Virus record (IMG/VR): IMGVR_UViG_3300020044_003577
Location: 1-60,120 of that record
From: a virus
Reading direction: 5' to 3' (one strand)
DNA: 60,120 bases
Under the pieces are notes generated by a model, which searched no databases, was not told the DNA's origin, and was given only the letters and a program-made list of their open reading frames with translations. This document shows positions 2,273 to 56,400 of the stretch, piece after piece (position 1 is the stretch's first letter; the number at the start of each line of letters is the position of its first letter). The position numbers and the translations under genes are program-made.

Positions 2273-4543
2273 TTATTGTGGCATTGCTGCCGCTGGTCCT
2301 TGAGGTTGAGGAGTCTCCATACCATTAGCGGGTCTGGAAGCATCTCCATGCGAGTCTGATGTGATAAACTCTTTAGCCATAGCTAAGAGAGCTTTGATAT
2401 CAGGTTGTTTAGGTGGATCAACACCTTCTTTAGCTGCTTGTATGTAGATCTTACCCCATTCTTGATAGGATTTATCTAATGCAACCATTAATTGTTTTGT
2501 GTTATCTTGTAGAGCATTCTTAGCTTGAACATTAGTCAAATCAATAGTAGCTTGTCTTTGAGCCATATCTAACATCTTAACTTGTTCTTCTAATTGTCTA
2601 AGCTTCTCATTAGCTTTCATTTCGCTATCTCTTGACTCTTGAGCCTTTTGCTTAAAGTCAGGAGTCGTATAGTCAACAAGAAAATCTAATGGGTCTAAAT
2701 CCATAGCTTCAAGAGTCTTACACGCAATACGTACAGCTGCCTCTGGATTAACTGCGCCACCAGCACCTGCTTGCATTAATGCGGGTAAAAGCTGTTGACC
2801 AACCATAGTCATCTTTTTAACAACGTTACTATTACCATTCTCACCTACATCCGCATCAATATACATGAGCATATTGTTGGGTAATGTTGATGGATCAACT
2901 GACTTGAAAATATCGTTCTGATCAGTGTATTTAACTACTTTACCACGGAGCTTAGATCTCATGGTACGGTATACACCATCGCATAAACGTTTAAAGCCTG
3001 TTTCAGCAAACCTACGTGCCATAAACTGGATACGTACTTGTGCAGCAGACATAGCCTTCTGCATCTTTTCTTCACTGTTACCTGATACATATAGTGTATC
3101 ATTTAAACCTTGAGCAGCCTTACCCATACCAGTAGCTTGTTCTTTATGAACCTGTAACAACTCTAGGATTGGTACAGTACCAGGACTAATAGTGTCTGGT
3201 GTCATAGCAGATACAGCTGTCATGGGGTTACCATTAGTAGCAATAATCTGTTTAGGCTTCATATTCTGAAGAGCACTAAAGTCTACTACATTAGGGTCAG
3301 CTAATTTAGGTGCATAGTTAGTTAAGTATACATTCTCAACGAAGCCACGAAGAATAGCTGTGGTAGCTAATGTAGATGGACGAACCATATCTGCAACGCT
3401 AATACCAAAGAATTCGTGAGGTACTTCAAAGGGACAAAGAGTTGCCAAGGGAATCATATCACAATCTTCTTCAAGCAGGATTGTTGACCCTGCAATAATG
3501 AAGTGTTTTAATTCTGCAATACCATCTCCGTCTCTATCTACCCTTAACCAACACTCGATAACAGTTAATTGTCTGTTAGCTTCTGAAGGGAATAGCTCCC
3601 TTGAATTTCCCCCTAGCCAGTACTCTTCGCCGACTAAGCGCTTTCGAGCAGCCTGCTCTTCGGTGTACTTGGTGGCCCAATCATATGACCCATCACCAAT
3701 AGCGTCCCAATCAATGTTCTCTGCAATATCGGGGAAAAACTTTCTGACCTCAGAACGGGTCATATCAATCTGAATACCTACGAATGCTGCATCATCTAGT
3801 GAGTGAGCATCCCTTGTAATCCTAAAACATTCTGGATGTACGTTCTTAATAAGAACTCGTGTCTTATTTGTTTTACGTTTTAAACGAACATCCTTGTATA
3901 CTACCTGAAACTCTGAGTTACCATCAGGGTTTGTTGTTAATTCTTGTTCATAATTGAGGTTTCCTATGATTTCTACATCAGAATCTGACAAAATAAGGTC
4001 TAAATTCTCTTGAGAAATAGAGTCATATTCTTCAAAATTATAGTCAAAATCCTCAATAAACTCCCACCGAACAATACTATTCTTCCACAAAAGAGCTGAC
4101 TTAACCCATGTATTAAGGATTTCCCAACCAGGATTCTGTTTAAAGATAGCATAGTTAACTAAATCAGAAGCTACCTTTGCATAATGGTAGTCTGTGGGTG
4201 TTGGTCCAGCAGGAAGAAATCTGGCCAGCTTATTATTGTTAAACATAAGTTCAGCAATAATAGCGGTGTACCCTTCAACAGCCTCTACTGTGTCAGATGA
4301 AACAATCTGAGACACACCTTGAGGGGTCAAGTGGTACTGTGGCATCATACCATATTCGTATGTAGCCTTTTGTCTTTCACGAGCCAAGTCAGAACTGTTT
4401 AAGAAGTCACCAACAGAGTTCATTACACCCTGTTCGATCATAGCTAATAGTTCATTATCACCTACTGGTTCTTTATACCTGTCAGTAAGTCTGATAGGGG
4501 TAGTTGTATTATCTGCCATTGTTAACCTTTCTGGGTTATTCAA
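2273..4543 (-). CDS. portal protein
   Basis: 756 aa, lying between the terminase-side genes and scaffold/capsid. Size and position are typical of podovirus/N4-type portals. The call is by synteny and size, not by a diagnostic motif. Confidence 0.7.
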   Translation of the reverse strand: MNNPERLTMADNTTTPIRLTDRYKEPVGDNELLAMIEQGVMNSVGDFLNSSDLARERQKATYEYGMMPQYHLTPQGVSQIVSSDTVEAVEGYTAIIAELMFNNNKLARFLPAGPTPTDYHYAKVASDLVNYAIFKQNPGWEILNTWVKSALLWKNSIVRWEFIEDFDYNFEEYDSISQENLDLILSDSDVEIIGNLNYEQELTTNPDGNSEFQVVYKDVRLKRKTNKTRVLIKNVHPECFRITRDAHSLDDAAFVGIQIDMTRSEVRKFFPDIAENIDWDAIGDGSYDWATKYTEEQAARKRLVGEEYWLGGNSRELFPSEANRQLTVIECWLRVDRDGDGIAELKHFIIAGSTILLEEDCDMIPLATLCPFEVPHEFFGISVADMVRPSTLATTAILRGFVENVYLTNYAPKLADPNVVDFSALQNMKPKQIIATNGNPMTAVSAMTPDTISPGTVPILELLQVHKEQATGMGKAAQGLNDTLYVSGNSEEKMQKAMSAAQVRIQFMARRFAETGFKRLCDGVYRTMRSKLRGKVVKYTDQNDIFKSVDPSTLPNNMLMYIDADVGENGNSNVVKKMTMVGQQLLPALMQAGAGGAVNPEAAVRIACKTLEAMDLDPLDFLVDYTTPDFKQKAQESRDSEMKANEKLRQLEEQVKMLDMAQRQATIDLTNVQAKNALQDNTKQLMVALDKSYQEWGKIYIQAAKEGVDPPKQPDIKALLAMAKEFITSDSHGDASRPANGMETPQPQGPAAAMPQ

Positions 4544-5861: not shown

Positions 5862-7502
5862 CTATATCCATGTTGTTTCTAATTGTTGAAAGTTCCCCAT
5901 CTTTTGTGTAAAAGGAACATTAGTCGTTGTTAGTCTATCTCCGTGTGTCCTGATCACTTCCAGAGCAATAGCAAGAGCGATAACGGTATCATCATTGTGA
6001 CCAACAATAGCATTTGTCCTACCATTGTCATCAGCCACATAATTCATTAACTCCCCAATAATAGTTCTTGAAGGTATCCATATTTCCTCTTGTTCAATAG
6101 CACTCTTAAGAAATCCAATAATAGCTGGCTTAGAGGATGTTGTTGTTCTCCAACCCATCCTTAATCCCTCATCCTTGGATACATTAGCCATCTTAGTCTG
6201 ATAATACATATTAACATAGCCCATTTGAACTAGTCTATTTAATGTAGCAATACCCATACTATTAGATTCTACCGCCATTAAAGCGTTATTATAGTATCTT
6301 CCTAGATAAAACAATAGATCCCCAAACTTACTGGGATCAATCATATTATTTCTGTATGTAGCACATACCTCTTTATCTGCATTCATAACTACCGCAGCAG
6401 AATGATCTTTACCTACCCCTAAGGATACGTCCGCAGCTATAACAAAAGATTGATCAAAAGATGGATATTTAAATATCTCAATGGAACCCTGCCTAGCATC
6501 CTCCATCATCATACTCTCAAAGTTAAATTCTCTCTGAGCTAATATTGGTTGTGGTATTAAACTATTTAACTTTTCAATATTAAATACATTAGAACCTGAA
6601 ACAATAAAGGCTTCTTCAGGAGTCGCTGGATACTCTTGTTTAAACTTGTCTACCCCACTCTCAGCTATCTTGAGTCTCCTCCAGTATAGTTGATCGTTAT
6701 CTAGGTTAAACCTTGTAACTAATATCTCTTCCTCATCTGTTCTCTCAAACCCCTCAGGTGCCTTCCTACGATATTCAGACATAAGAAACCAAGGTACGAA
6801 TATAGGTATATATTCATTCTTACCAGCTACAGCATCTATCCATAGTCTATGAAATGAATTACCTACCCCATTGGCAGTACTCTCAAGAATAACCTCGGTA
6901 CCGTCTGCTTGGGAAATACCCTGAAATAATCCTGCTAAAATTTTTTCATCATGGAGCCAAAAGGATACTTCTGAAAGATGTGCGATTGTAGGCGTAATAC
7001 CCCTACCCGCCTCAGGAGAACCTGCTGTATAGAGTCTATAACCAGAGTCATTATGTTCAAACATAATCTCTTTTGCGTTAGATCTTTTTAGAGTAGGTGA
7101 GAATGACTCAGGCATATTAGAAATAATATTCCTGGACATAGTAAACAAGGCATCAGATGTTGCGGCATCATGAGCCATAACAACTGACTTGTTGTAAGCA
7201 TTAAAATAAGACTTCCAGAATACTCTACCAGTAGTATAGGTAGAAAGACCCATCTGTCGGGCTTTTAGGATAATAGCCCTGACTTTCCCAGTCTCCTTTA
7301 GTTGACCCTCAATCGCATCATTAACAATCTTTTGTGCATCGTTAAAGTCAAATGGTTGGAATCCTAGTCGGGAGTCTTTGGGTAGAATCTTGATTTGCTC
7401 TTTCGCAAATAATTCAAAGTTATTTTGGTATTCTGCGAGTTTTTCTCTGCGCTTTAGTTCCCTTAAAGCCTCTAGCTTGCGGGTGTTTGAGATAGTTGTC
7501 AT
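5862..7502 (-). CDS. terminase large subunit
   Basis: 546 aa. It has a Walker-A-like KARQMGLST and a C-terminal RNase-H-like nuclease with acidic motifs (AADVSLGVGKDHSAAVVM, GHNDDTVIALAIAL). It is the first gene after late promoter copy P1. Confidence 0.85.
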   Translation of the reverse strand: MTTISNTRKLEALRELKRREKLAEYQNNFELFAKEQIKILPKDSRLGFQPFDFNDAQKIVNDAIEGQLKETGKVRAIILKARQMGLSTYTTGRVFWKSYFNAYNKSVVMAHDAATSDALFTMSRNIISNMPESFSPTLKRSNAKEIMFEHNDSGYRLYTAGSPEAGRGITPTIAHLSEVSFWLHDEKILAGLFQGISQADGTEVILESTANGVGNSFHRLWIDAVAGKNEYIPIFVPWFLMSEYRRKAPEGFERTDEEEILVTRFNLDNDQLYWRRLKIAESGVDKFKQEYPATPEEAFIVSGSNVFNIEKLNSLIPQPILAQREFNFESMMMEDARQGSIEIFKYPSFDQSFVIAADVSLGVGKDHSAAVVMNADKEVCATYRNNMIDPSKFGDLLFYLGRYYNNALMAVESNSMGIATLNRLVQMGYVNMYYQTKMANVSKDEGLRMGWRTTTSSKPAIIGFLKSAIEQEEIWIPSRTIIGELMNYVADDNGRTNAIVGHNDDTVIALAIALEVIRTHGDRLTTTNVPFTQKMGNFQQLETTWI

Positions 7503-7517
7503 GGGGGTTTCGTTATA

Positions 7518-7541
7518 GTTTCTCTATTAGGGGACTACTCT
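7518..7541 (-). promoter_or_regulatory. phage-RNAP promoter motif copy P1 (late arm, upstream of TerL)
   Basis: The minus strand reads AGAGTAGTCCCCTAATAGAGAAAC, with core GTCCCCTAATAG at 7524-7535. It is about 20 nt upstream of the TerL ATG. The TAATAG(G/A) end resembles the T7 class III ..CTATAGGGAGA. Confidence 0.6.
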
Positions 7542-7590
7542 TTATACTTTTTTCTATAGCCCCTTAGTCTTTGTGTGTGAAAAAGAATCA

Positions 7591-7977
7591 TGGGTTTGTT
7601 TGTTCTCCCCTCCCTGTGTCGTGTGACCCCCCTGTCTCGTGGTGGTCGGTCGTGCTGCGGTGTCGGGTCGTTCTTGTCTCTCTTCCTCTGTCGGTGGTGC
7701 TGTGGCGCTGGTGCTGTCGACTTCCTTTGTTAGCGCTGTCTTGGAGTTCATTATGCGTTCTATCCTCTTGTTCGTTTGTCTTCGCCGTGGTTTTGGTTTG
7801 TCCTTCTCTACTGCCTGTGGTCACTTGCTTAATGCTTGGGGTCGTAGTGAGTGGTACAGTGACATGTCTACTGTTGACCTGTTCCTGTTGGCTACTCGTA
7901 AGTCTTAAGGGCTTTCTCGGTTGGCTCCTTGTGGGGCTTTCCGAGAGCGTCTTGCTCTGTTCTAAAAGGGGTTTGTT
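7591..7977 (+). other. adenine-depleted, strand-asymmetric non-coding leader
   Basis: By my count there are 2 A in 7591-7720, 7 A in 7591-7800 and 34 A in 7591-8040. The rest is T/G/C. Because stop codons need A (or T on the other strand), all six frames are open, which explains the four overlapping track ORFs here. Confidence 0.85.
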
Positions 7978-8193
7978 ATGTCTTCTTCTTTTGTTGTCTA
8001 CGCTGTGTCTGCCTCTGCTCCTCAGTGTGTTGTTGCTAGCTTTGATACTGTTGCTGAAGCTAATGCTGCTGCTTGGTTGGCTAACTCTATCGATAATACT
8101 TGTGACTATCGTGTTGATGAGGTCTTGCTTGGTGACTTGCTTTGTTCTGAGTGGAAGACCAAGGAGAGAATGTCAGGATACGAATTACTTTAA
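7978..8193 (+). CDS. first early protein (71 aa, net acidic), unknown function
   Basis: ATG preceded by AAAAGGGG. The composition is protein-like (MSSSFVVYAVSASAPQCVVASFDTVAEANAAAWLANSIDNTCDYRVDEVLLGDLL..) although its codons continue the A-poor bias. Confidence 0.55.
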   Translation: MSSSFVVYAVSASAPQCVVASFDTVAEANAAAWLANSIDNTCDYRVDEVLLGDLLCSEWKTKERMSGYELL

Positions 8194-8205
8194 TAAGATC
8201 TCTGC

Positions 8206-8247
8206 CTATTGGGTGTAACAACCCAATGGAGAGCGATCTTGCTCTGT
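8206..8247 (+). promoter_or_regulatory. early intergenic hairpin module 1
   Basis: Hairpin ATTGGGT/ACCCAAT (8208-8214 with 8221-8227), loop GTAACA. It is followed by hairpin AGAGC-GATCTT-GCTCT (8230-8245). The second hairpin has a near-copy, AGAGC-GTCTT-GCTCT, at 7944-7958. No U-tract follows. Confidence 0.35.
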
Positions 8248-8274
8248 GTCCGTACATAACTCAAGGAGATTAAC

Positions 8275-8472
8275 ATGTACACAACCCTTAACATCCTCAC
8301 TGCATTTCTGTGGTATAGTGCTGCTGCATGGTCTATCGATGCTATCTATGTCGAAGGTCAAGGTGGTTTGCTACCTATCTTCGTATTGCTAGGATCAGGT
8401 GTGCTTGCTGGTATGCAATCAATAGACTTGATTCGTGATCTTAAAGACAAACACAACCAAGGAGAACTGTAA
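8275..8472 (+). CDS. small membrane protein (65 aa)
   Basis: AAGGAG RBS; two hydrophobic segments (ILTAFLWYSAAAW, LLPIFVLLGSGVLAG). Confidence 0.7.
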   Translation: MYTTLNILTAFLWYSAAAWSIDAIYVEGQGGLLPIFVLLGSGVLAGMQSIDLIRDLKDKHNQGEL

Positions 8473-11086: not shown

Positions 11087-11249
11087 GATATACTTTGATC
11101 TGATCAAACGTATTAAAGCCAAAGTCAAAGCAGACATATCAATCGTATATGATCCTGAAACTGGTATCCAAAAACATTTTCTTAAAGGTAAATTATTGAA
11201 AGTAAACAAGGTATCCAATGGAACAAAACCTAACAGCAATAATCTATGA
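11067..11249 (+). CDS. hypothetical protein (60 aa)
   Basis: AAGGAGAG RBS 5 nt upstream of the ATG. Confidence 0.55.
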   Translation: MAHSAAEIYFDLIKRIKAKVKADISIVYDPETGIQKHFLKGKLLKVNKVSNGTKPNSNNL

Positions 11250-11526
11250 CAAGAAAGGAAAAATCTTAAGTATAGGTAAAAACAGTTATACCAAGACACA
11301 TCCTTTTCAGGCTTTACATGCTAAAAAGCAGAATATGCCTGAGAGAATCTTTTTACATGCTGAAGTTTCAGCTATTGTGAAATGTTCTGATATAACAAAA
11401 GCACATAAAATGCTCGTTATCAGGACAAACAAAGAAGGTAGACACTTATATGCAAAACCTTGTAATATATGTATGTCTGCTATCGAGTCAGTAAACATTA
11501 AACAAATTGAATGGAGTATAGGCTAG
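11218..11526 (+). CDS. small cytidine/deoxycytidylate-deaminase-fold protein (102 aa)
   Basis: Zinc-deaminase signature HAEVSAI ... PCNICMSAI (HAE..PCxxC) in a roughly 100-aa protein. Confidence 0.6.
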   Translation: MEQNLTAIIYDKKGKILSIGKNSYTKTHPFQALHAKKQNMPERIFLHAEVSAIVKCSDITKAHKMLVIRTNKEGRHLYAKPCNICMSAIESVNIKQIEWSIG

Positions 11527-11844: not shown

Positions 11845-12225
11845 TTACTCTGAAAGACCTTCTTCTGAGATTATCTTCTTAAGTTCCTCATCAGTCAGAT
11901 CCACTGTCTTGTTAGTATTAGTCTGTTCAATCCGAGCTAGCTTAGGATTCTCATACTCTGCTATCATATTAGCGTATCTAGCTGCATCTTCATAGTTATC
12001 TTCCTGAAGTGCTTTAAACATAGCCATTCTAAGCACATCAAGTGAAGATACCTGAGGAAGATCATCTAAAGCTCTCTGAAAGGCTTTAGCCGTTATCTTG
12101 AATTCCTCTGCTAACTTGACGTTAAGTGACCTAGATGCTGCACTCTTAAGCTGATTAGCTCGTGCAGTCTCCGAGGTAATAACCTTAAGATTAGCTAAGG
12201 AATTTGGGTGTATTCCTTTTGACAT
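11845..12225 (-). CDS. orphan minus-strand gene in the plus arm (126 aa); helical, possibly DNA-binding, weak small-terminase candidate
   Basis: It has its own promoter copy (P3) and terminator. The N-terminus GIHPNSLANLK..ETARANQLKSAASRS resembles N-termini of some small terminase or DNA-binding proteins, from weak memory-based similarity. No other TerS candidate was seen. Confidence 0.6.
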   Translation of the reverse strand: MSKGIHPNSLANLKVITSETARANQLKSAASRSLNVKLAEEFKITAKAFQRALDDLPQVSSLDVLRMAMFKALQEDNYEDAARYANMIAEYENPKLARIEQTNTNKTVDLTDEELKKIISEEGLSE

Positions 12226-12244: not shown

Positions 12245-12269
12245 GTATCCCTATTAGGGGACTACTCAA
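12245..12269 (-). promoter_or_regulatory. phage-RNAP promoter motif copy P3
   Basis: The minus strand reads TTGAGTAGTCCCCTAATAGGGATAC, with core at 12251-12262. It is 26 nt upstream of the ATG at 12225. Confidence 0.6.
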
Positions 12270-15705: not shown

Positions 15706-15991
15706 ACGTAAAAACGGTACTTATGGTCCATTATTTATTAATCGACCACAAATACTCTTTGTAGGTATAACCTATGATGCTGAAGATCATCCTACCAAAG
15801 GATATGCTCATAGACCAGGTTGGCACTGTTGTTCTTTACCTATAGCGCCACACCTATCTAAAAAAGGTCGTGTATGGTGTGAAGTTAAAATTGAAGGATA
15901 TACAGAACACATAAGACCTTACAGTCAAGGTGGTCTCTGGTTCACAGCAAATAAATTAACTATCCTAAAGGAAATTAATGTTGAGGCATAA
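15671..15991 (+). CDS. conserved hypothetical protein (106 aa)
   Basis: ATG at 15671 within track ORF 15644..15991. The pattern KAIFAYKLFRKRKNGTYGPLFI..GYAHRPGWH..RVWCEV..RP.SQGGLWF is recalled from many phages. Confidence 0.6.
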   Translation: MKAIFAYKLFRKRKNGTYGPLFINRPQILFVGITYDAEDHPTKGYAHRPGWHCCSLPIAPHLSKKGRVWCEVKIEGYTEHIRPYSQGGLWFTANKLTILKEINVEA

Positions 15992-16412
15992 AGAACATAC
16001 CTATCTTGCTGGCCCTATTGAAGGATTAACCAAAGAACAAGCAATGAAATGGAGAACAGAAGCTTCTTTTGAACTAGCTAACTTTGGTGTTGATACGTTA
16101 GACCCAACTCGTAGAACATCTTTCGTTGACAGTAACCATCTGACAAGCAAAAATGCTGCAAGACGAGTATGGAAAGCAGACCTTCAAGATATCGCCTATA
16201 GTACAGTTGTATTAGCTAACTTATCAGACAGTCTACCAGGAAAGAAATGGGGTACTGTATGTGAAATAGCTCATGCACATACTAAAAATAAAATCATTAT
16301 TGTTGTTATGGATAAAGATCAATTCGAACATCCATTCATAACACAATATGCTACTGAAGTACATCATACGTTAGAAGATGCTATTGAAGCTGTAAAGGAG
16401 TATTACCTGTGA
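15978..16412 (+). CDS. nucleoside 2-deoxyribosyltransferase-like protein
   Basis: N-terminal YLAGPIEG..W R and later GTVCEIAHAH..KIIIVV resemble the NDT/DUF4406-type Rossmann-like fold. TTG start. Confidence 0.45.
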   Translation: MLRHKEHTYLAGPIEGLTKEQAMKWRTEASFELANFGVDTLDPTRRTSFVDSNHLTSKNAARRVWKADLQDIAYSTVVLANLSDSLPGKKWGTVCEIAHAHTKNKIIIVVMDKDQFEHPFITQYATEVHHTLEDAIEAVKEYYL

Positions 16413-20295: not shown

Positions 20296-20482
20296 AGATC
20301 ATGGTGACATAGTAAGTATTTTGTTTTTAGTTAAACCACCTAAAGACCATACTCAACTATGGCACTTAACAGAAGTATGTAAAAAACTACAGGAGCTAGT
20401 GATACAATATGAAGACTCAGAAAGATTGGGATCAGTTTTATCTGAAGATAGCACAGTTAGTAGCCCAGCAAAGCTATGCTAA
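20285..20482 (+). CDS. possible 65-aa protein
   Basis: ATG overlapping the MazG-like stop. It fills the 113-nt gap but runs 74 nt into the dCMP deaminase gene. Confidence 0.35.
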   Translation: MLIEDHGDIVSILFLVKPPKDHTQLWHLTEVCKKLQELVIQYEDSERLGSVLSEDSTVSSPAKLC

Positions 20483-20876
20483 AGACCGTAAAGTAGGTGC
20501 TGTTATCGTTAAGAATGATAACATTATCTCTTTCTCTTATAATGGAACACCACGAGGATGGGATAATGAAACTCAAACAGATGATGGACAAACTAAATCA
20601 ATGGTACTACACGCTGAAGCTCAGGCTATTGCTAAGTTGGCTCGATCAACCTTATCTAGTGATGGCGCTACTCTCTACTGTACCCTTAGTCCTTGTATTG
20701 ATTGTGCAAAGCTTATTAGTGAAGTTGGTATTAAACGGTTAGTCTATATTGATGAATATAAATGTACTGAAGGTATTGATTTTCTAAAAGCTAATAATGT
20801 ATTAGTCAATGAAGAATACTCAACAACAAAATTAGCCTCTAAAGAATGGTTGGCTAGAACAGGACTATTATGGTAG
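20409..20876 (+). CDS. dCMP deaminase
   Basis: W..FYL..A.LVA..S....KVGAVIV, HAEAQAI and PCIDCAKLI zinc-binding motifs at canonical spacing. Confidence 0.85.
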   Translation: MKTQKDWDQFYLKIAQLVAQQSYAKDRKVGAVIVKNDNIISFSYNGTPRGWDNETQTDDGQTKSMVLHAEAQAIAKLARSTLSSDGATLYCTLSPCIDCAKLISEVGIKRLVYIDEYKCTEGIDFLKANNVLVNEEYSTTKLASKEWLARTGLLW

Positions 20877-26424: not shown

Positions 26425-28626
26425 ATGAATCCAGTACAATATCTATCTGAAAGAGTAGCCAAAGTCGTGGTCAACTCAGATAAGATTTATAATGAGGGTG
26501 CTCGACTACTAGCACATCATCCAACATGGGAATATGACTTAGAAAGGTTTGTAAATGAATCGTGGGACACACTTCTCCGCTACTGTATTCGCAACAAGAA
26601 TGCAACTCATAGCGCATCAGTTAAACTTACTTTTGCAAGTGACCTTATCGGAAAACGAATCGCAAGAGCTATTGGAACTGATGAAAGCAACATCAAATCA
26701 ACTCTCGCTCTTGGAGACATTCTACTCGAAACATTTCTCCAAGATAGCTTAATAGATATCTTCAGAGAGTATGATGGATTTAAGGCTCCATATATGGTAC
26801 GTATTGTCAATATGCCTGACAATATTAAGCCTACATTAATAGGTACTTCATTTGAACCTTTGTTACCTATAGCTGGTCTATATAGTAACCTTACTAAAGA
26901 GCCATTCATTAAGGGATGGACTAACAGTAAACTGTTTCATGAGTACTTAGATAAACCTTTTGTACGTGCATTAGAAACATTACGCCAACAACCTTGGGTA
27001 TTAAATCAGGGTGTGTTAGAAGGTATGAGGAATTATAAGCCAACTGAAATACTAGAGTTGGTTGATGATGATGGTGTGCTATATAACTACAACATTCATT
27101 ATGAAAATTTAGAACTACCAAAGAAACTTAAGCACCTAGATGGTACTTCTTTCCTTGGTAAGAAAGACCCTAAGCTACAACGTATGCTTAGTAAGTTCTT
27201 TGAATACAATCAAGTAGTAAAGAAAGCTGAATTGATTGGTGATAGATCATTCTATCAAGAAGTATCCTGTGACTATCGTGGTCGAGTATACTATGCTGAA
27301 TCCTTCTTAGAGTTTCAGGGTAGTGACTTAGCTCGTAGTCTCTTTTTATTTCAGAATAAAAAAGAGATGGATGATCGTGGTTACTTCTGGCTTAAGGTTC
27401 ATACAGCAGGATGCTATAATGAATCCTTTAATGTTAATAAATTACCACATTATTTTACTACTGACTATAAGACCTATTTAAAAGGAGAAGGTTTAGATAC
27501 TATTTCTCTTGATAAGATGACCCTTGAAGACAGAGCTATATGGGTAGATAATAACCTAGCTAAGATAGCTAGTATTGCTAATCATTATTATATAGATACC
27601 TCTGCTGAAAAGCCATATAGCTTACTAGCTTGTTGTCTTGAAATTAAAGCATATACACAGGCTAGATCTAAAAGTAAGAAGCATATGTCTGGTCTTCCTA
27701 TCCCTATCGATGGTAGTAATAATGGATGGCAACATCTGGCAGCTATGTCTAGAGATACCCAGGCAGCTACATTAGTGTCATTAGTACCTACACCTATACA
27801 GAAAGACTTCTATGTAGCTGTGGCTAAAGAACTAATTAACATCATGCCTGACTACTTTAAGCAAAAGAATATGCCTATGAAAGATATCCGTAAAGGTATT
27901 GCTAAACGAGGCTCCATGACTCGTGCGTACTCAGCAGGTAAACAGCGTATTGCTAAAAATATGTATGATGACTGCCATGTAGAAGGATTCACTGTTAAGT
28001 ATAATATCACAGAAAAAGAATGTGGAGATCTAGCAGGTAACTTAATTAAAGCTATCAATGCAGTATGCTCTGGTCCATTAAAGACAACTAAGTTTTTACA
28101 AAAAATTGCTGAACATGAACTTAACTCTGGTCGTAATCAGCTATCATGGCATACACCCTCAGGATTTCCTGTAGTATATAAAGCATTTCTCCAACATGAA
28201 CGTAAACATAGAGGTACTATCAGGGGTATACCTGGAAACCCCAAAGGAAGGATTAGACATGTTATTAAAGTGGATGTACTCAACAAAGACACAGGTGAAA
28301 AAGTTCCTTGTAGGCGCTCCTTTGCCTCTGGTATCAGTCCTAACGTTGTCCACAGTTACGATGCTGCTCATATGGCTAACGTTATCTCTATCTTTAATGG
28401 AAATTTTGGTGCTGTCCATGATAGTTTCAGTACTCATGCCAGCGAGGTAGACTTCTTACAGGAAGTAACTAAGATGACCTTTGTAGCACAGTATGATATA
28501 GACAATTTCTTTAGTAATCTTATGAATACATTAATGCTTAACAAAGATACATTCACCTATCCTCCACCAGAAGAAGGTACATTAGATTTAAAACAAGTCT
28601 ATGAATCTAAATACTTTTTCTGCTAG
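26425..28626 (+). CDS. T7-like single-subunit DNA-dependent RNA polymerase (733 aa)
   Basis: CDYRGRVYY (T/DxxGR); motif A PIDGSNNGWQHLAAM; motif B AKRGSMTRAYSAG; SPNVVHSYDAAHM; motif C AVHDSFSTH. Confidence 0.9.
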   Translation: MNPVQYLSERVAKVVVNSDKIYNEGARLLAHHPTWEYDLERFVNESWDTLLRYCIRNKNATHSASVKLTFASDLIGKRIARAIGTDESNIKSTLALGDILLETFLQDSLIDIFREYDGFKAPYMVRIVNMPDNIKPTLIGTSFEPLLPIAGLYSNLTKEPFIKGWTNSKLFHEYLDKPFVRALETLRQQPWVLNQGVLEGMRNYKPTEILELVDDDGVLYNYNIHYENLELPKKLKHLDGTSFLGKKDPKLQRMLSKFFEYNQVVKKAELIGDRSFYQEVSCDYRGRVYYAESFLEFQGSDLARSLFLFQNKKEMDDRGYFWLKVHTAGCYNESFNVNKLPHYFTTDYKTYLKGEGLDTISLDKMTLEDRAIWVDNNLAKIASIANHYYIDTSAEKPYSLLACCLEIKAYTQARSKSKKHMSGLPIPIDGSNNGWQHLAAMSRDTQAATLVSLVPTPIQKDFYVAVAKELINIMPDYFKQKNMPMKDIRKGIAKRGSMTRAYSAGKQRIAKNMYDDCHVEGFTVKYNITEKECGDLAGNLIKAINAVCSGPLKTTKFLQKIAEHELNSGRNQLSWHTPSGFPVVYKAFLQHERKHRGTIRGIPGNPKGRIRHVIKVDVLNKDTGEKVPCRRSFASGISPNVVHSYDAAHMANVISIFNGNFGAVHDSFSTHASEVDFLQEVTKMTFVAQYDIDNFFSNLMNTLMLNKDTFTYPPPEEGTLDLKQVYESKYFFC

Positions 28627-30818: not shown

Positions 30819-30893
30819 TGCGGAGTAGCTCAATGGTAGAGCAGGGGACTCATAATCCCTTGGTCACTGGTTCGATCCCAGTTTCCGCAACCA
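30819..30893 (+). tRNA. tRNA with CAT anticodon (Met, fMet or Ile2; undecided), CCA encoded
   Basis: Hand-folded cloverleaf. Acceptor TGCGGAG/TTCCGCA; D arm GCTC-AATGGTA-GAGC; anticodon arm GGGGA-CTCATAA-TCCCT; T arm ACTGG-TTCGATC-CCAGT; discriminator A plus CCA. Confidence 0.85.
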
Positions 30894-30904: not shown

Positions 30905-30979
30905 AGCGGGATAGCTCAGTAGGAGAGCGCTGGACTCATAATCCAGAGGTCGGTGGTGCGAATCCACTTTCCGCAACCA
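30905..30979 (+). tRNA. second tRNA with CAT anticodon, A1xA72 mismatch, CCA encoded
   Basis: Acceptor AGCGGGA/TTCCGCA (positions 1-72 unpaired); D arm GCTC-AGTAGGA-GAGC; anticodon arm CTGGA-CTCATAA-TCCAG; T arm GGTGG-TGCGAAT-CCACT. Confidence 0.8.
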
Positions 30980-31354: not shown

Positions 31355-31429
31355 GGGTCATTAGTTCAATGGATAGAACAGTGATCTTCTAAGTCACGAG
31401 TGCATGTTCGATTCATGCATGACCCACCA
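31355..31429 (+). tRNA. tRNA-Arg (anticodon TCT), CCA encoded
   Basis: Acceptor GGGTCAT/ATGACCC; D arm GTTC-AATGGATA-GAAC; anticodon arm GTGAT-CTTCTAA-GTCAC; T arm GCATG-TTCGATT-CATGC; discriminator A plus CCA. Confidence 0.85.
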
Positions 31430-32025: not shown

Positions 32026-32131
32026 GGGTAGTAATCGTAGACCTACTGATGAGAAGAAATACAAAGATAACTACGACCAGATCTTTGGTAAAAACAAACA
32101 ACCAGTTAAGGAACAATCTAATGGTAAATAA
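32018..32131 (+). CDS. small basic protein (37 aa) with KYKDNYDQIFGK motif
   Basis: Hand-translated MSKGSNRRPTDEKKYKDNYDQIFGKNKQPVKEQSNGK. A Y.DN(Y/W)D.IFGK motif is recalled from small ORFs of many phages. Confidence 0.5.
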   Translation: MSKGSNRRPTDEKKYKDNYDQIFGKNKQPVKEQSNGK

Positions 32132-32582
32132 TATTTCTGTAGTACTATTACCTCTACGTAATCTTTTTGCAGATAACTTTACTGTATACTACAAGTCACA
32201 TGGTTACCACTTTAATGTTGAAGGACCAACATTTGCTCAAGATCACGAGTTATTAAACGAGATTTATGATTTCCTTTGGGCGCAACATGATGGTTTAGGT
32301 GAACAATTACGTCAGTTAGATAAGCCAGCATTACCTTCTCTTAAAGCTATCTTAGATACTACAGAGATTCTTGAGTGTAATAAACTAGGTGAGTCTAGCA
32401 AAACTATGTTTACTGAGTTATGTAATGACTTTGAAATACTAATTCAAAATGCTCAATCATTATTTGAGGTAGCTGATAAAGCTTGTTATGGTGGTTTGAA
32501 TACTTTTATTGGTGACTACCTTAGAGACCTAAGTAAACTACATTGGAAAGTAAAAGCAACTATTGGAAAGAGTTTTAAATGA
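32121..32582 (+). CDS. Dps / ferritin-like protein
   Basis: LRNLFADNFTVYYKSHGYHFNVEGPTFAQDHELLNEIY......D.LGEQLRQL matches the Dps helix A/B pattern. ATG at 32121 with an AAGGA RBS (the track start at 32049 is rejected). Confidence 0.6.
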   Translation: MVNNISVVLLPLRNLFADNFTVYYKSHGYHFNVEGPTFAQDHELLNEIYDFLWAQHDGLGEQLRQLDKPALPSLKAILDTTEILECNKLGESSKTMFTELCNDFEILIQNAQSLFEVADKACYGGLNTFIGDYLRDLSKLHWKVKATIGKSFK

Positions 32583-45069: not shown

Positions 45070-46188
45070 TTATTTAAAAAACTTACCTACCATCCAACAT
45101 ACTACTGAGTATCTTGTTCCTTCTTCTACATCTTCTACCCCATGCATGATAAAGCTTGGGAATACTAAAACTGTACCTTTAGATTGTGGAGGATAAAATC
45201 TTTCATAACCATTTTGTAAATAAAATTTTCCACCTTTAAAATCGTCATTAAGGAAAGCTAACACAGTAAGCTTACGGCAATTATCCCCATGAGCTAAAAA
45301 AGTATCTACATGAGACTTATAACGACCGCCAGCAGGATAAATTAAAAATTCAGCTTGATTAGCATGTGTAATATCAAATTTCCATGCTTCATGGTTTGCT
45401 AATAATCCTGCTGCAGCCAATCGACCACCAATATCTTTATAAGTAGGTAGCATAACTCTTTTTACATTACGAATAGAAGTATCAACAACACCATTACCTC
45501 TACCAATAACGGGTAATTCTTTAGGTACTTCATCTTTTGTATACAATTTAATTAAAGAATCGCAGGCTTCTTTAGTAAGAATGTCTGTGTAAACAAAATG
45601 TTGAAGCTCTTGGTTTGCTTGACTGGGCAAATTTAAACTTTGACGTTTGTCAAATTTCCATTCTGCATGTGGACCATCAGCATCTACATAATGCAAAAAC
45701 ACTTGTGCTTGCCAATTACCTTTAAATTTTTTACGCCAATGATGTTTCTCCATACCACGATAAAGAACAACATCACCTACGCCCATAATAATTTTAGAAG
45801 CGTTTTTTTCGTTTTCATCGCCCATGTATATAGGCCATGCTTCACCATCAAAACCTAAAGTAATAGTTGCACTAATTTCGCAAGACTCTCTATCAGTATG
45901 GATCTTTAACTTTTCTCCAGTTTTGTATAATCGAGCATAACTGTAAGTAGGGTAAAGTTGTTTACCTAATACTTTTTCAAAGTGCGGCAAAAGGTCAACT
46001 AACAATTTATCAAACGCCATAGCACCATGAATTGCTTCTGATGTTGGACATTGATCATCTTTGTGAGTTGCTTTTCCGTCAACTAACCGTTTTAACTCGG
46101 CAGTAAATTCATTACAATTATTGATATCTAAAAAGTTTTTCAAATGCACATACTTCTCTTGTGCAAACTGAATTAAGGGTGTATTCAT
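45070..46188 (-). CDS. tandem 2OG-Fe(II) oxygenase domains (C-terminal one prolyl-4-hydroxylase-like)
   Basis: N-terminal domain: KIHTDRE ... GMEKHHW. C-terminal domain: YKSHVDTF...RKLTVLAFLNDDFKGGKFYL...VLVFPSFIMHGVEDV..GTRYSVVCW (HxD...H...R). Confidence 0.75.
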   Translation of the reverse strand: MNTPLIQFAQEKYVHLKNFLDINNCNEFTAELKRLVDGKATHKDDQCPTSEAIHGAMAFDKLLVDLLPHFEKVLGKQLYPTYSYARLYKTGEKLKIHTDRESCEISATITLGFDGEAWPIYMGDENEKNASKIIMGVGDVVLYRGMEKHHWRKKFKGNWQAQVFLHYVDADGPHAEWKFDKRQSLNLPSQANQELQHFVYTDILTKEACDSLIKLYTKDEVPKELPVIGRGNGVVDTSIRNVKRVMLPTYKDIGGRLAAAGLLANHEAWKFDITHANQAEFLIYPAGGRYKSHVDTFLAHGDNCRKLTVLAFLNDDFKGGKFYLQNGYERFYPPQSKGTVLVFPSFIMHGVEDVEEGTRYSVVCWMVGKFFK

Positions 46189-53278: not shown

Positions 53279-53488
53279 TCATACTCCTATTAAATGTTTA
53301 ATAAAATCTGCTGCAGTACCTGGACCTAATAATACACATAGCATTACGCCATAAAGTAAATATTCAATCTTAGTCATACGAGCAGCGCCATCAGAAAGAC
53401 TTTTAGATATATTAGCATATCGTTCTGCACACACTTGTTCGTGTGTCATTAATTTAGCTTCTGTTAAAGTTACAGTATTATCTGTCAT
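53279..53488 (-). CDS. small membrane protein (69 aa; holin/antiholin candidate)
   Basis: Single C-terminal TM segment IEYLLYGVMLCVLLGPG. ATGA coupling to the fibre gene stop. Confidence 0.55.
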   Translation of the reverse strand: MTDNTVTLTEAKLMTHEQVCAERYANISKSLSDGAARMTKIEYLLYGVMLCVLLGPGTAADFIKHLIGV

Positions 53489-56400
53489 TATCTTGATTCC
53501 TTTAATTTTTTAATTTCTTCTTCAAGAGATAATACTCTTTGGGCTAATTGAACACACGCTACTAAAGCAGCATTTCCATATGCAACAGATAAGTCTCCAT
53601 TATTATCTTCTAACACTGCATGTTCAAGCACCAAACGAAGTGATTGAGCAGACACACCAACTTGTGTAGCACCATTATCTATACGATCATATACACCATG
53701 CTTAACTTGTGATAGTTGTTCAACAAAGTCAGTAGGTAAATCTTGCCAATTAGTTTTCTTACGTTCATCAGAAGATGCTGATACAGTGCCTGTTGCAGTT
53801 AAATTTACAACAGTATAGCTGTTTGCAGTATTCAAAGCATCAGCAGTAGCAGCAGTTGTTGCTGTAGTTGCTGTAGTTGCAGTGGTAGCTGTAGTTGCTG
53901 TAGCAGCATTACCTGTACAAGAACCTGAAGAACCATCAATATTAATACCTGTTAATGATTGCGTAGCACTTGCTCTATTAACTGCAATACTTGTTGTACC
54001 TAAATTAAAAGAGGATGTAGTATAAAAGCCATTAGTTACCGTAGCCGCATTACCTGTGCATGAAGCAGATGAACCTGTTGTGTTTTGATTAAGCGTTGGA
54101 AATGTACAGTTAGTCAAAGTGCCGCTTGATGGTGTACCAAGTGCGCCCCCACTAACCAGATTCCCGCTTGCAGTACCAGTTAAAGCTGCGGTAATAGTTC
54201 CTGCACTAAAATTACCTGATGCATCTCTAGCAACAATAGTACTTGCTGTATTTGCATTTGTTGCGTTAGATGTAACTGTAAATGTAGCTGCGGTAGATTG
54301 ATTTGCAGTAAATGTTTGTGAACCAGATAACCCTGTTCCTGATACTGCTAATGTTAATGTACCGTTGTTTACATTACTTGCTGTAGTTGCTGTAGCAGCA
54401 TTACCTGTACAAGAACCTGAAGAACCAGTTGTATTTTGATTTAATGTAGGTATATCAGCAGCAACAATAGCCCTAAATGTAGCATTACCAGCTGTTCCAT
54501 TAGGTGCGGCATAAAAATAATTAGCTATTTGAGAACCAGATAAACCAGCAGCAGTGCCTGTTGTGTTTTGATTTAAAGTAGGAAATGTACAGTTGGTTAA
54601 AGTGCCGCTTGATGGAGTACCTAATGCACCACCTTGAACAACAATAGTTGAACTTGCGTCAGGTAATGTATAAGTTTTTTCTGCTGTTGTTGCACCAGTA
54701 AACTTAGTAAATCCATTACCAGTACCACCATAAGTAGATGAAATAATGTTTGTTACATCTGCTGAACCATTAAATGAGCCACCATGAATTGATCTTGATG
54801 TTGTTAATGTAGCTGCAGAACCTGTTGTATTTTGATTTAATGTAGGAAATGTACAGTTGGTTAATGTACCACTAGCAGGTGTACCTAATGCAGGTGTAAC
54901 TAAAGTAGGTGATGTAGATAATACAACATTACCACTACCCGTAGTACTATAAGAAATACCCCAAGCACTACCTGTAGAATTTACAATACCTGCACCTGGA
55001 TAAGTAAAAGTACTTGGTGCAGCAAATTGAGTAAATATAATACCAGTAGTTCCTATTGTAATAGGTAGTAATGTTTGTTGTACCCAAGAAGTATTTGTGT
55101 TAATTGTACCTGACAATATTAAAAGAAAGTCACCAGCATCAACTTCATTAGTACCTGTACCTGAAGTATCATAGTCTGTTGCACGAGTTAATACCCATCC
55201 AGCAACCCCTGATCCAACACTAGTAACAGTATACACACCATTTTGTGAGGTAGTTGTTTGATTTTTAACTAATATACGTTGACCTACAGAAGGAGATGCA
55301 CTATCAATAGATAATGCTGCAAATGTAGTTATTTTAGTTAATGTAGCTCCTACGCCTGATGTGCCATTATTATAGGATACTGTGCCTAAATCTGCAGTTG
55401 TAGCATAGTTGCATGCTGCATGAAAGTTAATACCTGAGACAACAGAATCAACATAAAGTTTATTAGCAATATCAGTATTTGCAGAAGGAGCGGTTGATAT
55501 TGTACCTGTTGTTAAAGCAACAGAAGTAATATCTGTATTTGCACCTGATTTAGCAGCACTTAAATTTGTTCTTGCAGTGGCTGTATTAATTACATCAGAT
55601 AAGTTATTAGCAGCAAGCAACACACCTGCAGCAGATACATAAGCTACCAACCATACAGAACCTGTATACACCTTCATAACAGAATCAGTTGTATTAAAAT
55701 ATAATGCACCTGTTAATAAAGCATTACCATCATTATCTAATGTAGGATTAGAAGCTTTTGCCCCAAGATACCTGTCATCAAAAGAATCATATGAAGCGGC
55801 AGCAGCTAAAGCAGAGGTATTAGCATTGCTAGCTGAAGTAGAAGCAGATGATGCGCTAGATGCCGCATTAGTTGCTTGAGTAGTTGCAATACCTGCTTGT
55901 GTTGTAGCCGTTGTTGCACTTGTTGTTGCACTACTTGCTTGGGTAGTGGCTATACCTGCCTGAGTAGTTGCGGTTGATGCACTAGTGGAAGCAGATGATG
56001 CACTAGATGCCGCATTAGTTGCAGAAGTCCCAGCAGAAGTAGCTGATGCACTTGCTGATGTAGCACTATTAGAAGCATTAGTAGCATTTGTTGAGGCAGA
56101 AGATGCACTACTAGCTGAATTAGAAGCATAAGTACTTGCAGATGTTGCCGATGATGCTGCATTAGTTGCCTGAGTAGTAGCGGTACTTGCTTGGGTAGTG
56201 GCTATACCTGCTTGAGTAGTTGCTGTAGTTGCACTAGTAGAAGCTGAAGAAGCACTAGCAGAGGCGTTAGAGGCTTGAGTAGTAGCTATACCCGCTTGAG
56301 TAGTTGCTGTTGTTGCTGAACCAGAGGCTGATGTAGCACTACTAGCAGCATTAGTTGCTGATGTAGAAGCTTCACTTGCTTTTGTGGTAGCTGTTGTTGC

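Follow-up and report, generated by a model that had tools for sequence, protein, structure and literature searches.

The window analysed here, the whole stretch of 60,120 nt held in IMG/VR virus record IMGVR_UViG_3300020044_003577, is the circular assembly of a 59,999 bp phage genome whose first 121 nt are repeated at the end. Its late arm lies on the minus strand and carries the genes for the terminase large subunit (TerL), an SU10-type portal (2273-4543), a scaffold, a tail fibre and large virion proteins, several of which have no family match. The early arm occupies the plus strand from ~7.6 to 32.8 kb and encodes a family-A DNA polymerase, a primase-helicase, a class II ribonucleotide reductase and a T7-like single-subunit RNA polymerase (26425-28626). 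The subject of this study is a zone just to the right of TerL in which the plus strand is nearly devoid of adenine (A). An earlier note on this DNA had drawn attention to the depletion and had located it at the divergence of the late and early arms, which the gene map bears out, with TerL (5862-7502) reading leftward and the early genes reading rightward.

A stretch nearly without adenine between the late and early arms

The earlier note reported 2 adenines in the 130 nt of 7591-7720, 7 in the 210 nt of 7591-7800 and 34 in the 450 nt of 7591-8040, and a recount returned exactly these numbers. Given an A content of 31.4% for the window, the corresponding binomial tails are 9e-19, 6e-25 and 1e-34. 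The depletion is real and stronger than first noted, and in weaker form it runs past the limit of 8040 originally set, to ~8145 (52 A in 555 nt). When base composition was computed in sliding windows over the whole 60 kb, as the earlier note had recommended, all eight of the lowest-A 200-nt windows fell at 7501-7851, a minimum unique to that place, and comparable depletion of any other base was seen nowhere. The longest A-free run measures 93 nt (7627-7719), as against at most 50 nt for runs free of any other base. The remaining bases are all abundant (C 0.27, G 0.32, T 0.38), which is the genome composition minus A and confirms that neither GC skew nor purine skew is involved. Open reading frames (ORFs) extend on both strands across the zone. 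One corollary drawn earlier, that palindromes containing A or T are excluded altogether, turned out to be too strict, as GTCGAC at 7716 and AGCGCT at 7732 lie at the edge of the strict zone.

The 88 nt that separate the terminase start codon from the zone are highly conserved among related phages. They include a block, TCTTTGTGTGTGAAAAAGAATCAT, that is present in every relative of the window clade, 0-25 nt ahead of the A-free zone; the zone always starts after this block and never before it. From its sequence and position we regard the block as the putative core of an early promoter, with AAGAAT (7583-7588) as a possible -10 element; the last adenine ahead of the zone stands at 7590. A scan with the sigma-70 consensus did not call the block, and it gave no promoter-like matches inside the zone.

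The first part of the zone is a leader with a G+C content of 58%, compared with 37% for the genome. It is non-coding, because it shows no 3-nt periodicity (p = 0.28), because indels in relatives shift the frame and because the ATG at 7590 is absent from relatives; on these grounds a coding role was dropped. The leader sequence is conserved over its first ~55 nt. Its predicted fold is no more stable than those of shuffled sequences (z = +0.3), so that a special leader structure was dropped as well, and the Rfam 15 covariance models gave only a chance match in the zone (E = 0.9). A terminator-like hairpin near the end of the strict leader was called by a consensus scan and is kept in close relatives, with a folding energy equal to that of shuffles (z = 0.0).

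Two small genes follow. The earlier note had taken the ORF at 7978-8193 (ORF2) as the first of the early arm, but it is preceded by a 51-codon ORF with its own ribosome-binding site (ORF1), which is conserved in five relatives (L004, L007, L013, L014 and L015). The A-poor bias does carry on into these genes, as had been proposed: ORF1 has 19 A in 156 nt and only 2% A at third codon positions, and the A content of ORF2 climbs from 6% in its first quarter to 33% in its last. ORF1 has no match in PHROG and ORF2 none in Pfam or PHROG, and among 5.8 billion proteins ORF2 has four homologues, all unannotated.

Directly after ORF1 lies an RNA stem-loop that closes the A-less cassette (free energy -30.4 kcal/mol, z = -4.1). 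In an alignment of 15 distinct relatives 98.5% of its cells are paired, and three pairs show compensatory changes. Five of the pairs are G.U in all or most sequences, and since these would be C-A mismatches on the opposite strand, the stem-loop folds only as sense RNA. Judged from these sequences, the zone clearly appears to be transcribed as plus-strand RNA. Processing and stabilising hairpins stand between the early cistrons of T7, and the stem-loop occupies a comparable place. The A-poor module ends with two adjacent stem-loops (fold of 8194-8274: -27.2 kcal/mol, z = -3.9), and an AGAGCG...GCTCT element is found at every cassette boundary in relatives. The next gene has 24-29% A at all codon positions and is kept in all close relatives, including L009, which is without A-less cassettes. 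The features of the region are collected in Table 1.

Table 1. Features at and around the adenine-depleted zone, with window coordinates
Feature	Position	Strand	Remarks
Terminase large subunit (TerL)	5862-7502	-	Pfam Terminase_6N/6C, PHROG 2; opens the leftward late operon and bounds the divergent region on its left
Copy of phage-RNA-polymerase-type promoter motif (A/T)GT(T/A)GTCCCCTAATAG(G)	7522-7537 (listed at 7533)	-	Points left at the terminase gene
All copies of this motif	11729, 19866, 28631, 30802; 51148, 12260, 7533	+; -	Four on the plus and three on the minus strand
Conserved block TCTTTGTGTGTGAAAAAGAATCAT	7568-7591	+	Putative rightward early promoter core; single copy in the window
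Strict adenine-free non-coding 5' leader	7591-7752	+	5 A in 162 nt
Terminator-like hairpin	7690-7731	+	G.T-rich stem, then TTCCTTTGTT; end of the strict leader; low confidence
ORF1	7753-7908	+	51 codons; GGAG ribosome-binding site
RNA stem-loop closing the A-less cassette	7908-7953	+	46 nt; conserved
ORF2	7978-8193	+	71 codons; acidic, 10 D/E vs 4 K/R; GGGG ribosome-binding site
Two adjacent stem-loops	8206-8229 and 8230-8245 (AGAGCGATCTTGCTCT)	+	Mark the end of the A-poor module
First conserved early gene of normal composition	8275-8472	+	65 codons; right boundary of the A-poor module

Each of the seven copies of the motif (A/T)GT(T/A)GTCCCCTAATAG(G) in the window stands upstream of genes in its own orientation. 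This position and their resemblance to T7-type promoters make it probable that the T7-like RNA polymerase of the phage uses them as promoters. The copy at 12260 serves a minus-strand gene (11845-12225) that sits inside the plus-strand early arm; transcripts from it would head for the terminase gene, passing in antisense through early genes and the adenine-free zone.

The zone and its genes in related phages

IMG/VR holds more than 200 relatives of the window phage. The sole isolated relative is Roseobacter phage CRP-7, whose TerL is 57% and whose RNA polymerase is 33% identical; a search for near-identical DNA among isolated phages returned none. Nearly all relatives that could be oriented by TerL and have enough flanking sequence have, next to TerL on its upstream side, a stretch with 0-5 T per 130 nt, which is A-free when read on the early-gene strand. 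Defining a zone as at least 90 nt with at most 2 A per 50 nt, we found 74 loci in two clades (inter-clade TerL identity 57%) with a zone of 90-800 nt on that strand, which answers the earlier note's call for a comparison with related genomes. The shortest zones measure ~100 nt (L009, L024) and the longest 796 nt with 9 adenines (L042), and runs with no A at all reach 259 nt. Across the 74 loci the composition is steady (C 0.28, G 0.30, T 0.41). CRP-7 itself has a zone of ~600 nt with 8 adenines (L001 9365-9966), and the marine contigs L095, L113, L116 and L084 of its clade have zones of this kind. The exceptions are L125 and L088, in which the zone was lost, and the more distant podophage MW202692, which is of the same terminase lineage and has no zone. 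Full-text literature searches for adenine-free or A-less phage sequences, together with the CRP-7 papers, gave no description of such a zone, which is apparently undescribed.

The cassettes that follow the leader differ even between relatives whose TerL proteins are at least 96% identical, and L009 and L125 are without the genes; the module is therefore accessory and fast-evolving. Where present, the ORFs in the zones of relatives comprise 117-212 codons (354-639 nt) with 7-18 adenines each, and the adenines that remain in long zones are those of the ATG, the stop codon and a few GAC, TAC or GAG codons. These ORFs have a strong 3-nt periodicity (p 1e-5 to 1e-24), which the leaders lack (p 0.28-0.9). 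Ten amino acids with A-free codons (in essence F, L, S, C, W, P, R, V, A and G) supply 95-97% of their residues, compared with 50% in core genes. Even the ribosome-binding sites conform, being GGGG in the zones and AAGGAG elsewhere. The A-less ORFs encode real proteins, and neither those of the window nor those of the relatives match Pfam or PHROGs.

One A-less family is common to both clades (CRP-7, L095, L042, L071). It has 56 homologues, all of them metagenome proteins without annotation, in which certain W, G, C, R and F residues are invariant, and an exhaustive profile search retrieved 52 representatives among 1.8 billion representative proteins. Its AlphaFold model has an 85-residue core at pLDDT >90, with the strand and helix order of an OB fold, and the protein is Arg-rich rather than acidic. 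The best matches in the Protein Data Bank (PDB) are the OB-fold B subunits of AB5 toxins (E ~0.02, TM 0.45-0.5), and the similarity to OB folds is weak in both PDB and BFVD. On the strength of the model we call the family OB-fold-like, a likeness that would be one of fold and not of function. Some homologues have in addition an acidic C-terminal extension of normal composition. Whatever the mechanism behind the zone, it provides natural, conserved and foldable proteins encoded without adenine, which is of relevance to the evolution of proteins in reduced alphabets and to the design of nuclease-resistant or restriction-proof expression cassettes.

Because the zone has no stop codons on either strand, gene callers mis-annotate it. 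The minus-strand 'gp72' of CRP-7 (L001 9272-9967; MK613349 57271-57966) overlies the adenine-free zone and is almost certainly spurious; the real gene there is an A-less plus-strand ORF of 128 codons (L001 9609-9995). For the same reason, gene callers have over-extended the N-termini of its metagenome homologues.

Two kinds of repeated sequence were observed around the zones. Runs of C (CCCCTCCC, CCCCCC) lie ~20-50 nt into the leader (7608-7640 in the window) and are conserved in both clades, and CCCC occurs 127 times in the zones where 46 are expected. These runs contain CCUCC, the core of the anti-Shine-Dalgarno sequence, and could pair with the GGGG ribosome-binding sites downstream. Eight relatives (L076, L080, L017, L022, L025, L081, L130 and L131) have G/T-rich direct-repeat arrays just upstream of the early block, at ~150-330 nt upstream of TerL in L076 and L080, and, in early orientation, at ~560-700 in L130 and ~270-363 in L131. 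The arrays consist of GTCTnTGGGG(A) iterons, of tandem AGAGAGTGTTTTAAT, of TTCTTGGTGAG repeated ~10 times or of a 19-nt GT-rich unit, and could be binding sites for a regulator, an origin or the terminase (pac). The window has no G/T-rich array of this kind.

Selection against adenine and what may lie behind it

The zones vary freely except towards A. In aligned zones 531 of 1251 columns are variable (42%), and only 51 of the variable columns contain an A allele. Differences between C and T (302), G and T (204) and G and C (104) are common; those between G and A (26), T and A (18) and C and A (9) are few. Every kind of change to A is under-represented 7-9 times, which indicates continuing selection against adenine in the sense strand. 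Where the constraint on the genes is partly relaxed, A is scarcest at third codon positions (2-11%, compared with 30% in core genes) and within the opening quarter of each gene. Strictness declines from the leader to gene 1 and on to gene 2, and from the 5' to the 3' end of each gene. The constraint acts on nucleic acid, on the sense strand, and fades with distance from the start.

Several simple causes were considered and set aside. A cause at the protein level, such as a hydrophobic or signal-peptide-like composition, was rejected because the purge is just as strong in non-coding leaders, at ribosome-binding sites and at synonymous positions. Ordinary deamination skew does not fit, as C is not depleted, G is not enriched and all changes to A are equally rare. 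Enrichment of T7-type primase sites was dropped after GTC, GGTC and GTGTC proved not to be enriched, as was a TadA-like adenosine deaminase of the phage, its deaminase being of the ComEB/dCMP type. Expression independent of ATP is unlikely, as the ATG, the stop codon and translation need A or ATP.

That the depletion is a by-product with no function at all seems very improbable to us. It might then stem from adenine-specific mutation, of a deaminase-like kind or by a diversity-generating retroelement, or from repeated de novo formation of stop-free sequence beside a promoter, and A-less DNA would gradually regain a normal composition with age and with its displacement downstream, making the zone a gene nursery. 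The steady composition of the zones does approximate that of a genome in which each A has been randomly replaced by C, G or T, length and content turn over quickly between close relatives, A content rises with distance from the start, and all frames are open, which favours the birth of ORFs. However, the OB-fold-like family is conserved across both clades under purifying selection and is A-less all the same, and the essential adenines (ATG, stop codons and a few GAC or TAC codons) have been retained. Moreover, we found no reverse transcriptase, template/variable repeat pair or tandem repeats, the sole clear deaminase is the ComEB-type dCMP deaminase, and G is not enriched, contrary to what A-to-I editing would produce. 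A diversity-generating retroelement in particular was dropped, as the scanned ORFs contain no reverse-transcriptase domain and the window no second copy of the zone. Such elements share with the zone that adenine is the sole affected base, but they diversify A positions where the zone lacks A.

What ties the zone to a transcript is its start 0-25 nt after the promoter-like block, together with the stem-loops that fold only as sense RNA. Since the GGGG sites, the G.U pairs of the stem-loops and the start at the block all point the same way, RNA or transcription is implicated at least as much as duplex DNA. A role at the level of RNA, in which the immediate-early message is held out of reach of adenine-dependent RNases and RNA-modifying defence enzymes, is the explanation that we favour, although with low confidence. 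The zone would be the 5' part of the first (immediate-early) transcription unit, with the block at 7568-7591 firing rightward and the sense strand kept without adenine from about the first transcribed base, at a presumed start site. The A-free stretch would comprise the non-coding leader and then the accessory small genes, with less strictness further from the start; a stem-loop would close each cassette, and the normal early genes would come thereafter. A transcript of G, C and U only would leave host enzymes that depend on adenine in single-stranded RNA without a target. Candidate threats are MazF (ACA), ToxN (AAAU), toxins of the HigB/YafQ type, A-specific HEPN RNases, AU-directed RNase E, the mRNA ADP-ribosyltransferase CmdT (GA) and the RADAR deaminases. 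The 3' stem-loops would halt exonucleases after a cut further downstream, and the first, strain-variable proteins, which probably act in counter-defence, would still be made in a hostile cell. A duplex without any site that needs adenine on both strands would arise as a by-product.

For every A-containing motif the message is motif-free in a trivial sense, the leader having 5 A in 162 nt and the relatives' genes 7-18 A each. By analogy, the variable, accessory content of the module is of the kind typically seen at counter-defence loci. ACA-less mRNAs remain translatable under active MazF, which underlies the 'single protein production' system; there too the letters missing from a nuclease's target let an mRNA escape while other messages are destroyed. 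That system, however, is engineered and concerns one trinucleotide in coding sequence only, whereas the zone is natural, extends to every adenine including those of the leader, and would evade a nuclease that is so far hypothetical.

A number of points weigh against this RNA-level role. It presupposes a hypothetical host factor, be it an RNase, an ADP-ribosyltransferase or another enzyme, and none of the zone proteins is similar to known counter-defence proteins. For most of the toxins named, a single adenine is an incomplete target, and zero tolerance would therefore call for an enzyme that is strictly A-specific or for weak selection acting in very large populations. U-rich sites of the RNase E type (G-N-U-U-U) persist in the leader, and the existence of a non-coding leader of up to 400 nt is left unexplained. 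The sigma-70 consensus scan yielded no promoter. Finally, a weaker shortage of A marks the top strand at the mapped left ends of the phages phiKMV, LKA1, KP34 and SP6, in DNA that lies upstream of the promoters annotated there, which hints at a DNA-level, end-related cause in podophages that encode an RNA polymerase.

A start at the promoter-like block would also suit a clear path for transcription, in which the zone ensures uninterrupted and unidirectional early transcription without antisense initiation or premature termination. A -10 element needs A (-11) and T (-7) on the non-template strand, so that an A-less duplex would be promoter-free in both directions; it would also lack sigma-dependent pause sites, its sense RNA would have no AUG, stop codon or AGGAGG, and avoidance of TTTT would remove terminators. 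TTTT is indeed strongly avoided (77 against 162 expected), promoter-like matches inside the zone are absent, and the leftward promoters at 12260 and 7533 indicate opposing transcription nearby. Nevertheless, we judge such a role improbable. It does not require zero adenine, as most single adenines make no -10 element, and it gives no reason for recoding whole genes into a ten-letter amino-acid alphabet. In addition, the same early genes are transcribed without the leader in L125 and L088, and because these phages do without it the leader is dispensable for early transcription as such.

The main rival to a role in RNA is immunity to restriction at the level of DNA, which we rate as unlikely. 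It builds on the suggestion of the earlier note that the zone is a restriction-proof leader and the first DNA to enter the cell. The zone would enter first and be the only part of the genome in the cell while the remainder is slowly drawn in by transcription, and the DNA encoding the first anti-restriction proteins would be uncuttable before those proteins exist. An A-less strand offers no A/T-containing palindromes and no Type I, BREX or MmeI-like sites, and Type III sites in one orientation only. The only palindromes open to it are 3-5 times under-represented: in 36 non-redundant zones GGCC occurs 9 times against 52 expected, CCGG 10 against 43, CGCG 10 against 32 and CCTGG 7 against 36, and the first three are the most avoided G/C-only 4-mers inside zones. 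Outside the zone of the window, CCGG is absent (29 expected), as is CGCG (17 expected), and GGCC is found 25 times against 72. Because the same avoidance is genome-wide, however, it is not specific to the zone; GCGC is not avoided, and both GCGC and GATC are at expectation in the genome. As a separate observation, the absence of CCGG and CGCG and the depletion of GGCC outside 7500-8300 form a clear signature of restriction avoidance that points to HpaII/MspI-, BstUI- and HaeIII-like enzymes in the hosts.

The gradient of depletion (leader over gene 1 over gene 2, and 5' over 3') would fit exposure by time of entry, the phage has a T7-like RNA polymerase and several unmatched large virion proteins, and A-poor top strands, although weaker, are seen at the mapped first-entering ends of phiKMV, LKA1, KP34 and SP6. 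Of the earlier proposal, the location at the divergence of the arms and the bias into the genes have held up, and the strong avoidance of restriction sites in the lineage is in keeping with it, but evidence of a genome end has not emerged. No fixed end is evident at the zone: the assembly is circular with its 121-nt overlap elsewhere, and the contig ends of relatives scatter. Among solved structures TerL is nearest to gp17 of T4/RB49, and over its N-terminal half it shares 46% identity with the terminase of a P22-like phage. Both are headful packagers, unlike T7, a likeness that is suggestive of headful packaging and no proof of it. If the ends are permuted there is no first-entering segment and the logic of entry fails; purely entry-based explanations are weakened by the lack of an evident end at the zone.

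Other details also sit poorly with protection from restriction. The promoter block and the adjacent terminase promoter hold ordinary A/T palindromes, GTCGAC and AGCGCT occur within the zone, and relatives with a leader of 100-130 nt would gain only a tiny avoidance of sites. Nor does such protection account for why the missing base is A and why the strand affected is invariably the sense strand. Excluding C would make DNA equally site-free and would keep start and stop codons, AGGAGG ribosome-binding sites and 15 amino acids, and because its coding cost is far lower, restriction avoidance alone leaves the choice of adenine unexplained. A small, acidic first gene analogous to that for Ocr of T7 had been part of the earlier proposal. 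ORF2 is indeed small and acidic, which would suit an anti-restriction protein, but ORF1 precedes it, no homology to Ocr or ArdA was found, and the likeness to Ocr is not sustained by ORF1, ORF2 or the A-less proteins of relatives, none of which matches Pfam or PHROG and the most conserved of which is Arg-rich.

The Chi-like words to which the earlier note pointed as a sign of recombination control include GCTGGTGC at 7707, a 7/8 match, but the plus strand of the window lacks the exact GCTGGTGG, and a recombination-control region was dropped on this basis; the comparison used Chi of E. coli. GCTGGTG occurs 17 times in the zones against 6.6 expected and lies in GCT-GGT codon strings of homologous ORFs.

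The preference for the sense strand, and the fact that each single A counts, could in principle be explained from the template: a strand without thymine cannot carry thymine-dependent lesions that block RNA polymerase on the first genes. The lesions meant are T-containing pyrimidine dimers, excision of dU or modified T, and thymidine ADP-ribosylation of the DarT type; damage to the non-template strand would be tolerated, and double-strand breaks from excision on two strands would be impossible. UV lesions block the RNA polymerases of E. coli and T7 only when they lie on the transcribed strand (PMC6042481), and in that strand they would also block genome entry driven by transcription. On the template, T-containing dipyrimidine steps fall from 25.8% to 1.5% (a 17-fold drop) and all dipyrimidine steps from 29.6% to 9.4%, and these are phages of sunlit surface water (CRP-7 came from surface seawater; PMC6918029). 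Even so, we hold this explanation to be improbable too. GG steps, the source of CC dimers on the template, show no avoidance (odds ratio 0.90) and occur in the zone at twice the frequency seen elsewhere, and the 100-900 nt protected are negligible beside the ~19 kb of ordinary template between the zone and the RNA polymerase gene; both points weaken the idea of a UV-proof template. It also leaves the GGGG ribosome-binding sites and the RNA stem-loops unaccounted for.

Nor was a hydroxymethylase, PurZ, DpdA, Ugi-like or repair gene found. A search for genes of modified-base biosynthesis (ThyA-like hydroxymethylase, PurZ, DpdA) gave none, and the early arm has no unannotated ORF of suitable size. 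Deaminase and deoxyribosyltransferase-like genes without a thymidylate synthase, for which the early arm was searched, are compatible with altered pyrimidines but are not evidence for them. The early-arm ORFs at 20409-20876, 11218-11526, 15978-16412 and 32049-32582 resemble, respectively, a dCMP deaminase (ComEB-type), a short deaminase-like protein, a nucleoside 2-deoxyribosyltransferase-like protein (Nuc_deoxyrib_tr) and a Dps/ferritin-like protein.

Protection of the message and freedom from sites in the duplex may also be two sides of one module. We tentatively suggest, as a reading that could well prove wrong, that the zone is a 'stealth' expression module, evolved in a family of aquatic phages, from which adenine is excluded as a handle of much of bacterial nucleic-acid immunity. 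On DNA this handle would serve self-marking based on m6A; on RNA it would serve A-dependent RNases and modifying enzymes. Functional proteins, including the conserved OB-fold protein, would be written in an adenine-free code of ten amino acids, and the A-poor leading ends of phiKMV-like and SP6-like phages would be weaker echoes. Exclusion of a single nucleotide would then be a new and general principle of counter-defence, in which deleting one letter defeats whole classes of enzyme at once, as opposed to the avoidance of sites one by one. It would imply an adenine-dependent threat in abundant marine and freshwater bacteria and would make the variable genes behind the leader candidates for counter-defence. 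A cultured system for testing is available in CRP-7 on Rhodobacteraceae FZCC0042.

Comparable systems and other genes of the window

T7 is among the closest known systems. Its genome enters slowly, coupled to transcription, and gene 0.3 (Ocr) is expressed first. As in T7, the zone opens the early operon beside promoter sequences of a putative host type, with a long untranslated leader before the first small gene, and both phages have stem-loops between early cistrons, a small acidic early protein and a single-subunit RNA polymerase. In contrast to the nearly adenine-free zone, the first 3 kb of T7 are of normal composition (15-45 A per 100 nt); furthermore, the zone proteins are unlike Ocr, no genome end is evident and the terminase is T4/P22-like.

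Immunity through what a sequence lacks is also the principle of restriction-site avoidance in phages, as in the site-poor first-step-transfer DNA of T5 and the single-orientation EcoP15I sites of T7. The window genome shows this classical form too, but the zone differs in dropping a whole nucleotide, locally, from the promoter onwards and on the sense strand, ribosome-binding sites and codons included. G-less or A-less cassettes for transcription in vitro likewise offer a template without one base and make one nucleoside triphosphate dispensable; they are laboratory constructs, whereas the first A-less gene of the zone needs ATP already at its ATG.

The left ends of phiKMV-like and SP6-like Autographiviridae have 2-13 A per 100 nt over their first 300-800 nt. 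In phiKMV (L147, NC_005045) positions 1-800 have 4-11 A per 100 nt, followed by 20-34; weaker versions are seen in LKA1 (L149), with 2-15 at positions 1-500, and in KP34 (L150; 100-400) and SP6 (L151; 1-300). The ends of T7, N4 and Syn5 have no A-poor top strand. Like the zone, these ends have a top strand rich in T, G and C near early promoters, with strikingly similar words such as CTGTCCTGTCTGCT and GGTGGTCTGTGGTCC. Unlike the zone, they are found at mapped ends and within the terminal repeat, lie upstream of annotated promoters and are non-coding, and their A content is 5-10% compared with at most 1.5%. A DNA-level, end-related role for A-poor top strands in podophages encoding an RNA polymerase has to be reckoned with. 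We know of no description or explanation of these A-poor left ends. In LUZ19 the host promoters near the left end have been confirmed (PMC10914365).

Three tRNA genes lie in the early arm, at 30819-30893, 30905-30979 and 31355-31429 (two tRNA-Met with anticodon CAT and one tRNA-Arg with TCT), and one copy of the phage-type promoter motif directly precedes the two tRNA-Met genes. According to the CRP-7 paper, that phage also has a tRNA-Arg(TCT).

In the late arm, the tail-fibre gene (53488-57015, minus strand, 1175 codons) contains many dispersed short repeats, especially at 55865-56600, among them GCATTAGTTGC seven times and GCTTGAGTAGT six times. This suggests a repetitive region, possibly collagen-like or beta-helical. 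A further late-arm gene (45070-46188, minus strand) matches the PHROG families ferrochelatase and 2OG-Fe(II) oxygenase and is an unexpected auxiliary gene among structural genes.

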